Of a DNA stretch of 64,000 nucleotides, positions 13,251 to 63,459 are shown piece after piece. The stretch spans positions 28,874 to 92,873 of the forward strand of contig CANFOS010000011.1 in assembly GCA_947448735.1 (NCBI GenBank), given 5' to 3'. Position 1 is the first letter of the stretch. Every line of letters starts with the position of its first letter. This DNA comes from Comamonadaceae bacterium. Its GTDB lineage: Bacteria > Pseudomonadota > Gammaproteobacteria > Burkholderiales > Burkholderiaceae_C. The notes below the pieces were generated by a model, which searched no databases, was not told the DNA's origin, and saw only the letters and a list, made by a program, of their open reading frames with translations. Made by a program: the position numbers and the translations under genes.

Positions 13251-14210
13251 TTGAAACCATTTGCTTTTGTATTTCCGGGTCAAGGCTCTCAATCGGTCGG
13301 TATGTTGGATGCTTGGGGCGATCACCCTGCGGTCGCCCAAACATTGCAAGAGGCATCTGATGCGCTGGGGCAGGATGTGAGCCGATTGATTAAAGAGGGC
13401 CCCAAAGAAGAGCTGGCGCTGACGACCAATACGCAGCCCGTGATGTTGGTGGCGGGTGTTGCGGCTTACCGGGTGTGGATGGCCGAGGCAGGTGTGGCGC
13501 CGGCTTGCGTTGCCGGGCATTCGCTTGGCGAATACGCAGCTTTGGTGGCCAGCGGCGCATTGACATTGACGCAAGCCGCGCCGCTGGTGCGCTTTAGGGC
13601 CCAGGCCATGCAAGACGCCGTGCCCGTAGGCGCAGGTGCGATGGCAGCCATTTTGGGTTTGGATGCTTCGAAAATAATAGCTGTTTGCGCAGGTATTACT
13701 GGGGCTACCGCAGAGTTTGGTTTGCAAAATGGCGAAGTGGTGGAGGCTGTTAATTTCAACGATCCGCTGCAAACCGTGATTGCAGGCAGCAAGGCCGCCG
13801 TTGACAAGGCCTGCGAACTGCTCAAAGCCGAAGGTGCCAAACGCGCCTTGCTGCTTCAGGTCTCCGCGCCATTTCACTCCAGCCTGATGAAGCCCGCTGC
13901 CGAAAAGCTTCAAGAAAAACTGGCGCAAACCTCCTTCGCCGCCCTGCAGATTCCGCTGATCAACAATATTGACGTGGCGGTGCAAACCGATGCAGCGGGG
14001 ATTCGCGATGCCTTGTACCGCCAGGCTTTTGGTGCTGTGCGCTGGGTGGAATGTGTCCAGGCCATGAAAGCACGTGGTGTCAGCCATGTTGTTGAATGTG
14101 GGCCTGGCAAAGTACTGGCGGGTCTGGTCAAGAGAATCGATGCCGACTTGACAGGAGCCCCTTTGTTTGACCCCGCCTCCATGGCTCAAGTGAAAGAATT
14201 GCTGGTATGA
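13251..14210 (+). CDS. fabD: Malonyl-CoA:ACP transacylase
   Basis: FVFPGQGSQ, GHSLGEY, VSAPFHS; TTG start with GGAG RBS. Confidence 0.98.
   Translation: MKPFAFVFPGQGSQSVGMLDAWGDHPAVAQTLQEASDALGQDVSRLIKEGPKEELALTTNTQPVMLVAGVAAYRVWMAEAGVAPACVAGHSLGEYAALVASGALTLTQAAPLVRFRAQAMQDAVPVGAGAMAAILGLDASKIIAVCAGITGATAEFGLQNGEVVEAVNFNDPLQTVIAGSKAAVDKACELLKAEGAKRALLLQVSAPFHSSLMKPAAEKLQEKLAQTSFAALQIPLINNIDVAVQTDAAGIRDALYRQAFGAVRWVECVQAMKARGVSHVVECGPGKVLAGLVKRIDADLTGAPLFDPASMAQVKELLV
13664..13706 (+). repeat. 43-bp element, inside fabD
   Basis: TGCTTC-GAAAATA-ATAGC-N20-GGGCT. Confidence 0.8.
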
Positions 14211-14953
14211 GCGACATCAAGTTTGAAGGTCAAATTGCGCTGGTCACTGGCGCAACGCGCGGCATCGGCGCAGCCATTGCTCTGGAGTTGGCCAAAAAAG
14301 GCCTGAAAGTGATCGGAACGGCAACCAGCGATGCGGGTGCTGTCAAGATCAACGAGGCCTTGGCTGCTTACCCCGGTTGCGCCGGCAAGACCTTGAACGT
14401 GAACGACGGTGCTGCCTGTGAAGCGCTGATCGAGACCATCACGAAAGAACAAGGTGGCCTGCAGGTGCTGGTCAACAATGCCGGCATTACCCGCGATATG
14501 CTGGCCATGCGCCTGAAAGACGACGACTGGGATGCGGTGATGGACACCAATTTGAAGGCCGTCTTCCGGATGAGCCGCGCGGTCATGCGCACCATGATGA
14601 AGCAGCGCTACGGCCGGATCATCAACATCACATCAGTCGTCGGCAGCTCGGGCAATGCCGGGCAGTCAAATTACGCTGCAGCCAAAGCAGGTGTGGCTGG
14701 CATGACGCGGGCGCTGGCCAGAGAGCTGGGCTCGCGAAATATCACGGTCAACTGTATTGCACCCGGTTTCATTGAAACCGACATGACGGCCAGCCTGAGT
14801 GCGGAGCAGCAGAAAAATCTGCTGGCACAAATTCCTTTGGGCCATCTTGGCAAGCCGCAGGATGTCGCCCATGCCGTTGCTTATCTAGCCAGTCCGCTGG
14901 CGTCTTATGTGACTGGACAGGAAATTCATGTGAACGGCGGCATGTACATGTAA
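14207..14953 (+). CDS. fabG: 3-oxoacyl-ACP reductase
   Basis: TGATRGIG, NNAGITRD, YAAAK. Confidence 0.98.
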   Translation: MSDIKFEGQIALVTGATRGIGAAIALELAKKGLKVIGTATSDAGAVKINEALAAYPGCAGKTLNVNDGAACEALIETITKEQGGLQVLVNNAGITRDMLAMRLKDDDWDAVMDTNLKAVFRMSRAVMRTMMKQRYGRIINITSVVGSSGNAGQSNYAAAKAGVAGMTRALARELGSRNITVNCIAPGFIETDMTASLSAEQQKNLLAQIPLGHLGKPQDVAHAVAYLASPLASYVTGQEIHVNGGMYM

Positions 14954-15098
14954 CCTGCAAGTGGTAAAAAACGAACCAACTTTTCCACACTGGCGCTGGC
15001 TTTTATCCGTCTGGCTCAGTATTCACCCCCCGGTGCGTAGAGCGTCGCCTCTAACGCGCTAAAATCACGGATTAATTTACTACCCCCTGGGCGGAACT

Positions 15099-15338
15099 AT
15101 GAGCGATATCGAAGCACGTGTTAAAAAAATCATTGCCGAACAACTTGGCGTTGAAGAAGGTCAAGTCACCAGCGAGAAGGCGTTTGTAGCTGATTTGGGT
15201 GCTGACTCACTGGACACGGTAGAGCTGGTAATGGCACTCGAAGACGAGTTTGGCATCGAGATCCCGGACGAAGAGGCTGAGAAGATCACCACCGTTCAAA
15301 ACGCGATTGATTACGCCAACACGCACCAAAAAGCCTAA
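15099..15338 (+). CDS. acpP: Acyl carrier protein
   Basis: [14 protein letters not shown]. Confidence 0.99.
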
Positions 15339-15359
15339 GGCTACTGCTTCCCCTGCTTC

Positions 15360-15383
15360 AAAAGCCCCGTCCGGGGCTTTTTT
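15360..15383 (+). terminator. Intrinsic terminator after acpP
   Basis: AAAAGCCCC-GTCC-GGGGCTTTTTT. Confidence 0.8.
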
Positions 15384-61360: not shown

Positions 61361-61383
61361 AGGGGGTCTTCGGGGAAGCTTTA

Positions 61384-61409
61384 TCTTATCTTATATAAGA
61401 CATAAGACA
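61384..61409. promoter_or_regulatory. Operator palindrome between gntR and mdh (SdhR-type site)
   Basis: TCTTATCTTATATAAGACATAAGACA, with a perfect core TCTTATATAAGA at 61389-61400. Confidence 0.7.
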
Positions 61410-61498
61410 AATTGACGCATGGCAGCATTCGGCGCTAAAATCTTTGGCTGTTGTTGCTGCATGGCAACCGTTTTACTCACTTCCTGAAAGCTCCCATC

Positions 61499-62485
61499 AT
61501 GACCAAAAAACCCGTCCGCGTTGCCGTTACCGGTGCAGCCGGCCAAATTGGCTACGCGCTGCTGTTTCGTATTGCCTCCGGCGAAATGCTGGGCAAAGAC
61601 CAGCCCGTGATTTTGCAATTGCTGGAAGTCCCGGTTGAGGGTCCACAAAAAGCCCTCAAAGGCGTGATGATGGAACTCGACGACTGTGCCTTTCCTCTGC
61701 TGGTGGGCATGGAAGCGCACAGCGATCCGATGACGGCTTTCAAAGACACCGACTACGCACTGCTGGTGGGGTCCCGCCCACGCGGCCCGGGCATGGAGCG
61801 GGCCGAGTTGCTGGCCGTGAACGGCGCGATTTTTATCGCCCAGGGCAAGGCGCTGAACGCCGTGGCCAGCCGCAACGTCAAGGTGCTGGTGGTCGGCAAC
61901 CCGGCCAACACCAACGCATGGATCGCCATGAAAAGCGCGCCCGATCTGCCGCGCAAAAACTTCACAGCCATGCTGCGCTTGGACCACAACCGCGCGGCCA
62001 GCCAGGTTGCGGCCAAAACCGGCAAGGCTGTGGCCGACATCGAAAAACTCTGCGTGTGGGGCAACCATTCGCCCACCATGTACGCTGACTACCGCTTTGC
62101 CACCATCAAGGGCGAAAGCGTTGCCGCCATGATCAACGACCAGGACTGGAACGCCAACACCTTTTTGCCAACCGTTGGCAAGCGCGGCGCGGCCATCATT
62201 GAAGCGCGCGGCGTGTCGTCAGCCGCATCGGCCGCCAACGCCGCCATCGACCACATGCGCGACTGGGCACTGGGCACCCACGGCAAGTGGGTCACCATGG
62301 GTATCCCATCGGGCGGCCAGTACGGCATTCCTGACGGCACCATGTTTGGTTTCCCTGTGACCTGCGAAGGCGGCGAGTACAAACTGGTTGAAGGCCTGGC
62401 CATTGATGAATTCAGCCAGACCTGCATCAACAAGACATTGGCAGAGTTGCAAGGCGAGCAAGACGGCGTCAAACACCTCCTCTAA
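61499..62485 (+). CDS. mdh: Malate dehydrogenase
   Basis: [34 protein letters not shown]. Confidence 0.98.
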
Positions 62486-63459
62486 TGGCTCATCCCAGAG
62501 AGGTTCTTCTCGGCGCTCAGGCTGCAACTGGTTTCTTGCCAGTTTGCGACCACTACAGTGGCGTAGAGACGCGCATGCGCAAAAGCCTGCAGTTGCAGGC
62601 CGACATGTGCGCTGAGTTCGGCGCTTGCGTTTTTGACGTCACGCTGGACTGCGAAGACGGTGCGCCCGTGGGCGGCGAGGCCGACCACGCCGCCATGGTG
62701 GTGGCCCTGGCCACCCAGGCCAGCCCCAAGGCCCGCGTGGCAGTGCGTGTCCATCCCATCGATCATCCTGCTTTTGAGGCTGACGTAGCCACCATTGCCG
62801 GCACGGTGGGCGACAGGCTTTGCCACATCATGGTGCCTAAAGTCGAGTCGGCGGGCGACATCATGCGGATTGAAAAAGCCCTGAACGATGCGCATGCAGG
62901 GCATCTGCCCCTGCACGTGTTGATTGAATCGCCCGCTGCTGTGCACCGCGCTTTCGAGATTGCCGCGCATCCGCGTGTGCAGTCACTCAGCTTTGGTCTG
63001 ATGGACTTTGTATCGAGCCATGGCGGTGCCATACCTGCGCATGGCATGACCAGTCAGGGTCAGTTCGACCACCCGCTGGTGGTGCGCGCCAAGCTGGAGA
63101 TAGCCTCGGCCTGCCACGCCAACAGCAAAACACCATCGCATTGCGTGGTGACAGAATTTAACGATGCCGCCGCCATGACGATGGCCGCGCGCCGGGCTTT
63201 TCACGAGTTTGGCTACACCCGCATGTGGAGCATCCACCCGAACCAGATTCGTCCGATTCTGGCGGCCTTCGCACCGACTGAAGGTGAGATTGAAGATGCT
63301 ACAAGAATAATAGCTGCAGCCGCTCGTGAAGAGTGGGCTCCGATCAGCTTCGAGGGTAAATTGCACGACCGCGCCAGTTATCGCTATTACTGGCAGGTCT
63401 TGGAGCGTGCGCACCAGACGGGCCGTGACTTGCCAGCCGAGTCACAGATCTACTTTTAG
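62485..63459 (+). CDS. CitE/HpcH-family acyl-CoA lyase
   Basis: TLDCEDGAP, VPKVES, IESP, FGLMD, WSIHPNQI; 1-bp overlap with mdh stop. Confidence 0.88.
   Translation: MAHPREVLLGAQAATGFLPVCDHYSGVETRMRKSLQLQADMCAEFGACVFDVTLDCEDGAPVGGEADHAAMVVALATQASPKARVAVRVHPIDHPAFEADVATIAGTVGDRLCHIMVPKVESAGDIMRIEKALNDAHAGHLPLHVLIESPAAVHRAFEIAAHPRVQSLSFGLMDFVSSHGGAIPAHGMTSQGQFDHPLVVRAKLEIASACHANSKTPSHCVVTEFNDAAAMTMAARRAFHEFGYTRMWSIHPNQIRPILAAFAPTEGEIEDATRIIAAAAREEWAPISFEGKLHDRASYRYYWQVLERAHQTGRDLPAESQIYF
63297..63339 (+). repeat. 43-bp element, inside the CitE-like gene
   Basis: TGCTAC-AAGAATA-ATAGC-N20-GGGCT. Confidence 0.8.

Follow-up and report, generated by a model that had tools for sequence, protein, structure and literature searches.

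Repeated DNA motifs inside protein-coding genes have been described from several bacterial systems. HIP1 (GCGATCGC) of cyanobacteria is an exact, palindromic 8-mer that occurs at very high density and whose DNA-level cause is unknown, and the Rickettsia palindromic elements (RPEs) are said to be insertions of about 30-50 extra residues into loops of Rickettsia proteins. Repeats of the repetitive extragenic palindromic (REP) type have been treated as extragenic, or as insertions when they lie in genes. Here we report on a repeat in a 64-kb stretch of contig CANFOS010000011.1 from a Comamonadaceae bacterium (hereafter the window), where about 50-60 nt are superimposed on conserved enzymes and regulators with the length preserved, in codons that are otherwise avoided, and are retained across the genus. 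The finding is real, and it concerns a long REP-like repeat that behaves like an uptake sequence inside genes.

Like HIP1, the window repeat is palindromic and is worked into genes by the choice of codons, but it is a long degenerate composite at low density and not an exact 8-mer. With the RPEs it shares a repeat family that lies in frame inside housekeeping genes and is translated. However, RPEs add residues, whereas the window repeat is superimposed on native codons and the length is kept.

The uptake signal sequences (USS) of Pasteurellaceae and the DNA uptake sequences (DUS) of Neisseriaceae (Findlay & Redfield 2009, PMC2817400) are, like the window repeat, over-represented both between and within genes. 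In both cases the copies are overlays on existing codons at poorly conserved residues and not insertions, biased frame use inflates particular peptides, and the signature is that of a force on DNA and not on protein. USS frame use tracks preferred codons, and USS are preferentially located at poorly conserved residues (PMC2817400). On the other hand, USS and DUS have an exact core of 9-12 nt, whereas the window repeat consists of a degenerate 17-bp dyad plus about 30-45 nt, imposes the rare codons ATA, CTA, TTA and GTA, occurs about once per 4 kb and has intergenic copies that look like REPs. The likeness to the uptake sequences of Neisseria and Haemophilus that was drawn in the initial annotation thus holds as a pattern (overlay, poorly conserved positions, frame bias) but not as a demonstrated function.

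The GTAG-tagged REPs (Di Nocera et al. 2013, PMC3733652; Nunvar et al. 2010, PMC2817692) share with the window repeat a GTAG/GGAG-type head (GTAGC, ATAGC or GGAGC), a GC-rich and stem-loop-prone segment, an AGAGGC-like tail and a large number of copies that occupy, in either orientation, short spacers inside operons and between them; some members are translated in open reading frames (ORFs). However, published intragenic REPs lengthen the protein by 20-30 residues or more, being inserts said to 'interrupt' or 'decorate' ORFs (PMC3733652), whereas four of the five sites discussed here add none; moreover, the window repeat has an extra left arm, which makes its head a 17-bp dyad, and its hairpin is inconsistently kept. 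In 2010, REP-associated tyrosine transposases (RAYTs) were reported to be missing from all betaproteobacteria but Thauera (PMC2817692). Neither the 20 window ORFs that were scanned nor the genes called in nine relatives (L161-L169) had a RAYT or Y1_Tnp domain; the latter included only an IS3-type pair, in L161. Because published intragenic REPs are inserts and no RAYT was seen, the element is called REP-like here and not a REP. Literature searches returned no paper on this repeat in Comamonadaceae; competence and biased uptake in these genera were outside their scope.

The repeat and its copies in five genes

The family was defined by a repeat search and by a scan for GCT-N11-AGC with an A/T-rich spacer. 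The head of the element is the 17-bp dyad TGCTAC-N7-GTAGC, in which the right arm can be GTAGC, ATAGC or GGAGC. It is followed by TGCTTGCGCA and by a variable stretch of about 10 nt, which often closes a stem of 5-9 bp, as in many copies (e.g., AGCGCTT..AAGCGCT and GCCCAAT..ATTGGGC). The sequence GGGCTAGAGGC, written also as (A)AGGGCTAGAGGC, stands 3' of this variable stem-loop region, and a ATTTTGAT-like tail ends the repeat, which thus has a length of about 60 nt. Among 35 intergenic copies the A, G and C of the right arm (T)AGC were invariant and the T was at least 70% conserved. The motif is degenerate, and no exact 12-mer or 14-mer was found more than three times in the window. About 17 copies were recognized there, about nine of them intergenic (in short spacers and in both orientations) and eight inside ORFs; coding and non-coding DNA are both enriched for the motif, and about half of the copies are intragenic.

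The five intragenic copies named in the initial annotation are given below, with gene coordinates from a manual gene list and scores from the position weight matrix (PWM) introduced in the next section:

13664..13722, plus strand: copy in fabD (gene 13239-14210, plus strand); same orientation as the gene, GCT-codon phase; encodes DASKIIAVCAGITGATAEFG; 37.2 bits
43535..43594, minus strand: copy in trpF (gene 43072-43806, minus strand); orientation and phase as in fabD and citE; 13.3 bits (full), 14.3 bits (core)
52383..52431, plus strand: copy in a LysR-family gene (52050-53042, minus strand); reverse orientation; 38.4 bits
60696..60744, plus strand: copy in a GntR/UTRA gene (60578-61360, minus strand); reverse orientation, different phase; 19.8 bits (core), 10.3 bits (full)
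63297..63345, plus strand: copy in a CitE-like/HpcH_HpaI lyase gene (62485-63459, plus strand); orientation and phase as in fabD and trpF; encodes DATRIIAAAAREEWAPI; 22.6 bits

The Pfam identities of the genes are FabD acyltransferase, TrpF/PRAI, LysR-type regulator, GntR/UTRA regulator and HpcH_HpaI (CitE-like) lyase. Reading of the sequence bore out the coordinates, frames and peptides that had been proposed for the five sites. One frame, xxT GCT nnn nnn ATA ATA GCT, indeed recurs in trpF, citE and fabD and gives A-T/S-x-I-I-A: fabD reads gaT GCT TCG AAA ATA ATA GCT GTT TGC GCA (DASKIIAVCA) from 13664 on the plus strand, trpF reads ccC GCT ACA GAG ATA ATA GCT ACC TGC (PATEIIATC) from 43594 on the minus strand, and citE reads gaT GCT ACA AGA ATA ATA GCT GCA (DATRIIAA) from 63297 on the plus strand. 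The tail of the trpF element falls on the conserved Q-F-H-G codons, so that CAA TTT CAT (Q-F-H) doubles as tail, and the TGG GCT (W-A) of citE is native in all orthologues. The window CitE has no exact database record with the start codon chosen here; the called protein is 294 aa long. The reverse orientation in lysR and the other frame in gntR were likewise found on the gene strands. The lysR gene reads GCT ATT TAT TTT GAA GCA (AIYFEA, within ..SEQAAIYFEAS); the element is reversed there, yet its palindromic core keeps the same GCT-codon phase. The gntR gene reads CAG CTA TTA AAA GTA GAG (QLLKVE, within ..REQLLKVER), and the 3' half of its copy looks, by eye, shifted by about 3 nt in register.

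One phase of the element is closed by the TAG of GTAGC or ATAGC and is open only with the GGAGC arm, as in yceD (see below), and another would read C-Y-K-F-S-S-C. The GCT-codon phase gives A-T-x-I-I-A-A-C forward and A-Q-A-A-P/I-x-F-V-A in reverse, which are ordinary amphipathic-helix or signal-peptide sequences. The frame recurs because only stop-free phases are usable and the GCT-codon phase reads as an Ala/Ile-rich helix. The recurrent peptides in RNase E, RseB and a Rhodoferax CitE, treated below, are also caused by reading in this phase.

Superposition on native codons

The orthologues came from two sets of 80 loci each, genome loci around gltA and metagenome loci around fabD; single loci are cited by L numbers. 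Compared with orthologues from genera without the motif, no gap was present at the motif in trpF (6 orthologues), lysR (6), gntR (37) or citE (27), and therefore these copies are not simple insertions. The segments were initially taken to be of about normal length in these four proteins, and this was correct, as was the omission of FabD from the list. FabD has three extra codons (9 nt, G-I-T) in the 3' half of the element relative to about 75 orthologues, a gain present in the window and its three closest relatives. The FabD core itself has no indel against the native D-A-A-K-V-I-A-G-C-A, and a separate lineage, L092, has the fabD core without the three-codon gain. By eye, the gain changes the distance from TGCGCA to TTTGG from 15 to 24 nt, as in several intergenic copies; in trpF the 24-nt spacing existed already.

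The native residues at the sites are already of an A-x-x-[IV]-[ILV]-x-A type. The patterns are [x]-A-[STA]-x-I-[LVI]-x-A-A..W-A-P in CitE, ..A-I-x-A-A-C..L-Q-F-H-G in TrpF, ..L-L-K-V.. in GntR and D-A-A-K-V-I-A-G-C-A in FabD. Family-free relatives use GC-rich codons at the same positions, so that motif-less orthologues are similar in residue type but do not share the codons, and a change of length is missing from four of the five sites; neither coincidence of residues and codons nor simple insertion of all intragenic copies, the two outcomes that had been named as fatal to the proposal, was found. The alignments showed conservative or tolerated replacements, the costs of the overlay being Gly to Ala/Val in FabD and the loss of a conserved Pro in TrpF (V-P to I-Q or I-S). 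Intragenic motifs were found only in genomes with the intergenic family (the window, L001, L004, L010, L081-83, L092 and L161-169).

It had also been proposed that native helix codons were replaced. A helix is supported in the TrpF model only, where residues 72-80 (ATEIIATCQ) form helix alpha-3 between the strands 62-67 and 86-89 (AlphaFold model, 121 sequences; regional predicted local distance difference test score about 86-88). The sites are better described as recoded in place at pre-adapted and poorly conserved segments. Divergence in the motif blocks exceeds the gene average, but it does so between two motif-less orthologues as well. A 'burst of substitutions' as proof of patch replacement was therefore dropped, the test being confounded because the blocks vary between motif-less orthologues too.

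The match of the copies to the family exceeds chance. Only nine intergenic copies served to build a 49-nt PWM. Scanned over 1.26 Mb of related loci whose genomes lack the family, it gave no match of at least 25 bits, one of at least 20 and five of at least 13. The corresponding numbers for the 28-nt core in 1.17 Mb were none of at least 18 bits, one of at least 16 and six of at least 14, whereas 14 core matches of at least 18 bits were found in the 64 kb of the window. When protein sequences were kept and codons were redrawn from the window's own usage, four observed matches of at least 35 bits compared with none in 300 recodings of whole coding sequences. At the single sites, 100,000 recodings never gave a score as high as that observed for fabD, citE, lysR and the gntR core (P<1e-5), and P was 1.4e-4 for trpF. 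The trpF copy is marginal on its own, but it is corroborated by its orthologous copies (27.6 bits in L004, 26.9 in L162 and 27.3 in L163). A match of 25.3 bits at 34640 in a YgjP-like ORF was not counted, since its protein sequence explains the score (recoding P=0.34).

The codons imposed by the motif are rare, as stated in the initial annotation: ATA makes up 4% of Ile codons in the window, GTA 6% of Val codons, and CTA and TTA 1% and 3% of Leu codons. Among about 19,000 codons, ATA-ATA encodes three of 50 Ile-Ile dipeptides where 0.10 would be expected, and all three lie at the fabD, trpF and citE motifs. Six-codon windows with at least three very rare codons are confined to the rseB, gntR and citE copies. 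The fraction of A/T in third positions is 0.59-0.94 in the cores versus 0.25-0.44 elsewhere, and ATA accounts for 13/15, 12/12 and 7/7 Ile codons in cores versus 6/73, 6/81 and 6/59 elsewhere. From these alignments and recodings, the copies are best read as overlays on native codons, not insertions, that are driven at the DNA level. A force on the DNA that outweighs selection on codon usage would then be altering protein sequence here, for example in the Gly to Ala/Val change of FabD and the Pro loss of TrpF.

Conservation, further copies and neighboring genes

For the motif-bearing relatives, the fraction of identical codons in the core was compared with that in the rest of the gene and ranked against all sliding windows, as follows:

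fabD: core 0.93, rest 0.49; sliding windows as high, 0/289
gntR: core 0.94, rest 0.66; sliding windows as high, 0/220
citE: core 0.78, rest 0.56; sliding windows as high, 6/200
lysR: core 0.78, rest 0.55; sliding windows as high, 9/283
trpF: core 0.80, rest 0.67; sliding windows as high, 53/191 (not significant)

In fabD, gntR, citE and lysR the core therefore ranks within the top 0-3% of all sliding windows, and unusual conservation of synonymous sites is present in these four genes but not in trpF. An earlier pooled pairwise synonymous identity (46/55, a hand sum) was replaced by these sliding-window tests because shared ancestry inflates the figure; trpF then loses significance.

In the Polaromonas clade the copies are of old date and have been passed on vertically. 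The window comes from a freshwater, Polaromonas-like genome; its best homologues are named Polaromonas, and near-identical DNA was found in metagenomes of lakes and rivers. A trpF copy was seen in eight genomes (the window, L001, L161-L165 and the Rhodoferax locus L004), with ATA ATA kept in six of them, and ATEIIAAC is at least 90% conserved in 120 TrpF sequences of the Polaromonas clade. In citE, the 18 nt GCTACAAAAATAATAGCT (GCT ACA AAA ATA ATA GCT) are identical in four of six Polaromonas-clade genes and differ by one base in the other two, while the six proteins are 80-96% identical and the neighboring synonymous sites vary; ATKIIAAA is at least 90% conserved in 119 CitE homologues. P. 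jejuensis (L169) is among the relatives whose citE has the motif. In lake and river metagenome contigs, citE has two variable positions in the 17-nt dyad versus about eight in the next 14 nt, a contrast that is suggestive only.

The gntR copy is confined to a subclade formed by the window and L166-L168, in all of which CTA TTA AAA GTA/ATA is kept, and is absent in L169 and L001. A photolyase-related (DPRP) gene and a DUF2256 ORF (58665-60578) separate sdhC from gntR in the window subclade alone (L166 and L167 included); in other relatives sdhC directly adjoins gntR. The lysR site carries the motif in the window clade (including L162 and L164) and in L010, although by every marker five relatives without the lysR copy are closer than L010. 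Recurrence at the same site in separate lineages was thus seen twice, for lysR in the window clade and L010 and for fabD in the window clade and L092. The LysR orthologue of L161 (1538-1879), a close Polaromonas relative, is truncated to the helix-turn-helix domain (113 aa).

Three further intragenic copies are present in the window:

392..440, plus strand: copy in the RNase E C-terminal region (gene 8-3016, minus strand); reverse orientation; 36.6 bits
8322..8370, plus strand: copy in yceD/DUF177 (gene 8243-8782, plus strand); third phase, GGAGC right arm; encodes PLHNLERLAQE; 24.0 bits, recoding P=3e-4
18468..18516, minus strand: copy in the RseB/MucB signal peptide (gene 18448-19479, plus strand); reverse orientation; 45.6 bits, the copy being itself a PWM seed

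The RNase E copy is 96% complementary to the arm at 18492-18518. In 19 relatives its site forms a conserved island, QAPAQQxRAQAAPEFVAP, without indel in a tail that is otherwise hypervariable. At the yceD site, L086, L089, L090 and L125 have the motif with the rare CTA codon, and L138 has a weaker copy without CTA. The RseB signal peptide is collinear with the element, the same arrangement being found in L081-L083, and the repeat appears to have been co-opted as its coding sequence. In an rseA-like anti-sigma factor gene, copies in the GCT phase were found in L091 (14811), L099 (14815), L138 (14888) and L160 (6647); they occupy a linker of variable length before the transmembrane segment and may be true insertions. 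The citE orthologue of L004 (Rhodoferax saidenbachensis) contains a second, different intragenic copy (3965-4013, 34.4 bits) at about CitE residue 71. It coincides with a nine-residue insertion relative to most orthologues, and L007 shows an equally long insertion that lacks the motif.

The intergenic copies of the window are the following:

3209..3257, plus strand: reference copy in the rne-rluC divergent spacer
5801..5849, minus strand: reference copy upstream of the S49 peptidase gene
28557..28605, minus strand: reference copy in the spacer between acpS and the next gene
32538..32586, plus strand: reference copy between convergent genes, with the best hairpin (GCCCAAT/ATTGGGC)
34161..34209, minus strand: reference copy
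39306..39354, minus strand: reference copy downstream of accD
40770..40818, minus strand: copy downstream of trpA, not a PWM seed; 35.9 bits
49861..49909, plus strand: reference copy in the leuB-leuD spacer
53146..53194, minus strand: reference copy in the gltA-lysR spacer

The 17 copies are spaced at a mean gap of 3.9 kb with a coefficient of variation of 0.63, and 2.8% of random placements are as even; the longest stretch without a copy is 18.5-28.6 kb (lepA-acpS). The family is widespread among Comamonadaceae contigs with lineage-specific sub-consensus sequences, and it is absent from most other Burkholderiales loci compared. In about 20 of 80 related contigs an element copy is kept at one place, about 70 nt upstream of fabD, and intergenic copies at orthologous positions carry genome-specific sequence. 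In the window, a BNR_2-repeat gene (11291-12640) sits between fabH and fabD, and the fabH-fabD spacer holds the element instead in L091, L099, L106, L118, L123-125, L130, L131, L138, L140, L141 and L158, among the approximately 20 contigs. The possibility that the intragenic fabD copy replaces a lost upstream copy was rejected, as most orthologues have neither and L092 has both. The accD gene of the window (39366-40237) is apparently split into the overlapping ORFs 39366-39653 and 39632-40237, the latter with the Zn-ribbon and the first part of the carboxyltransferase domain. In relatives accD is a single gene of 290 aa, and the split may be a frameshift or a sequencing error.

Rfam gave no match at the gathering threshold over the 64 kb and none at E<=1 over 28450-34300, which includes three copies. 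A promoter or terminator role was rejected, since consensus scans over 13 kb with five copies stayed at the level of shuffles and the sites did not coincide with the copies.

What may maintain the copies

The intragenic copies belong to a repeat family that is found throughout the Comamonadaceae and has a head of the GTAG type, and it is about an even call whether they act as a DNA-level functional signal. The repeat consensus was superimposed on weakly constrained protein segments that already resembled it, by a switch to rare A/T-ending synonyms and tolerated amino-acid replacements, and with no net insertion except the three FabD codons, which bring one internal spacing to the usual 24 nt. 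As a functional signal, the copies would be held by a constraint on the DNA itself. The dyad GCTAC-N7-GTAGC and its flanking block would most likely be recognized by a trans-acting DNA-binding factor, probably dimeric because the 17-bp dyad is symmetric. Such a signal would be kept roughly every 4 kb and would be put inside ORFs where operons leave no intergenic room. The even spacing and the positional conservation of intergenic and intragenic copies across genera fit a functional signal.

Several observations weigh against a functional signal. No trans-acting factor and no function were identified from the data, which comprise 64 kb plus fragments only. RNAalifold on 35 intergenic copies returned 0 pairs and thus no fixed-register consensus, because the hairpin register varies among copies; folding of each copy was mildly better than that of shuffles (mean z-score -1.15; 36% of copies below -1.5). 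The synonymous-conservation test was not significant for trpF, the conservation comparisons are not phylogenetically independent, and copies have decayed in some lineages (fabD in L081, lysR in L165 and trpF, with ATC, in L164). Moreover, the orthologous intragenic copies resemble the subfamily of their own genome in the variable part. This resemblance and the 9-nt gain of FabD could be explained more simply by templated homogenization than by selection on point mutations. Of the DNA-level selection first proposed, the force acting on DNA stands, based on recoding, conservation and linkage to the family, but selection is not separable from gene conversion with intergenic copies or from molecular drive.

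In non-adaptive homogenization, which is possible though clearly the less probable, dispersed copies would template short-patch gene conversion, template switching or single-strand annealing; coding segments that share anchors with the repeat would be pulled to the consensus, and intragenic copies would be tolerated by-products. The similarity covers the whole 50-60 nt or so, including parts that vary between genera: trpF of L162 and L163 has TAGCTGCTTGCGCCCGTATTCAGGGCGCT compared with TAGCTGCTTGCGCCCGTATTCATTGGGCT in intergenic copies of Polaromonas, and trpF of L004 follows the L004 subfamily. Genome-specific sequence in intergenic copies at orthologous positions, the decay of copies in some lineages and the FabD gain, which turns a native 15-nt spacing into the usual 24 nt, point in the same direction. 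The overwritten sites also had native anchors at either end: A-A-C / TGC GC at one, and tails of Q-F-H-G or F-G at the other. However, RecA-type conversion usually needs roughly 20-30 identical bases and would be hard to start at a native site with scattered identity only, and citE and trpF have no nearby donor copies in the window. The margins of the own-family resemblance are modest and the cases few, the divergence 'burst' of the blocks is largely due to intrinsically variable segments, and the citE dyad is more conserved than the block adjacent to it. That a sequence-directed process, through templated patch repair or annealing, writes the repeat consensus into partly similar coding DNA and even adjusts its length is therefore to be taken as a tentative proposal, somewhat doubtful on present evidence. 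It and a functional signal are not exclusive.

Other explanations fare less well. A DNA uptake signal, in which biased uptake and homologous recombination (molecular drive) spread better-matching alleles, also within genes, could account for copies between and within genes, indel-free overlays at poorly conserved positions, a frame bias that enriches particular peptides and lineage-specific 'dialects'. It is unlikely, since there is no exact short core (no 12-mer more than three times in 64 kb), the conserved unit being a degenerate 17-bp dyad plus about 30 nt, the density is about 1 per 4 kb versus about 1 per 1.2 kb for USS/DUS, and rare codons are forced, whereas USS frame use follows preferred codons (PMC2817400). 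In-frame insertion of a mobile palindromic element (of the RPE or intragenic REP-like kind) followed by compensating deletions is very improbable. Extra residues do accompany the copies of some relatives (nine at CitE residue 71 of L004, and in the rseA linker of L091, L099 and L160), FabD gained three codons, and intragenic REP inserts are documented (PMC3733652). However, four of the five cited sites are at the exact orthologous length with well-aligned flanks, native residues match inside them (W-A-P in CitE, A-A-C and Q-F-H-G in TrpF, L-L-K-V in GntR), and neither a transposase nor a RAYT gene was found in the 20 window ORFs scanned. The least probable explanation, hardly credible here, is coincidence or protein-level convergence, in which Ala/Ile-rich helices happen to look like the repeat. 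The YgjP-like match is explained by its protein, and W-A in CitE and Q-F-H-G in TrpF are native matches. The recoding nulls and the family-free genomes contradict it nevertheless, rare-codon clusters occur only at motifs, and the motif tracks the intergenic family across genomes. Insertion plus deletion and chance are thus both contradicted by the data.

Motif patches of this kind distort dN/dS (the ratio of nonsynonymous to synonymous substitution rates) and codon-based inferences of expression or horizontal gene transfer, can be mistaken for recombination tracts, and explain conserved peptides specific to a genus, such as ATEIIAAC in TrpF, for which the protein itself offers no rationale. 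The system is tractable for separating function, gene conversion and molecular drive, as each copy comes with a motif-free orthologue as control and can be synonymously recoded. If homogenization is the true cause, a repeat family would be continuously editing housekeeping proteins genus-wide, including TrpF, FabD, the CitE-like lyase, LysR, GntR, RNase E and the RseB signal peptide. Such editing and a genome-wide functional signal are equally undescribed before. If the dyad is such a signal, for example an uptake or nucleoid-protein site, the Comamonadaceae would be a new lineage with coevolution of motif and proteome like that of uptake sequences.

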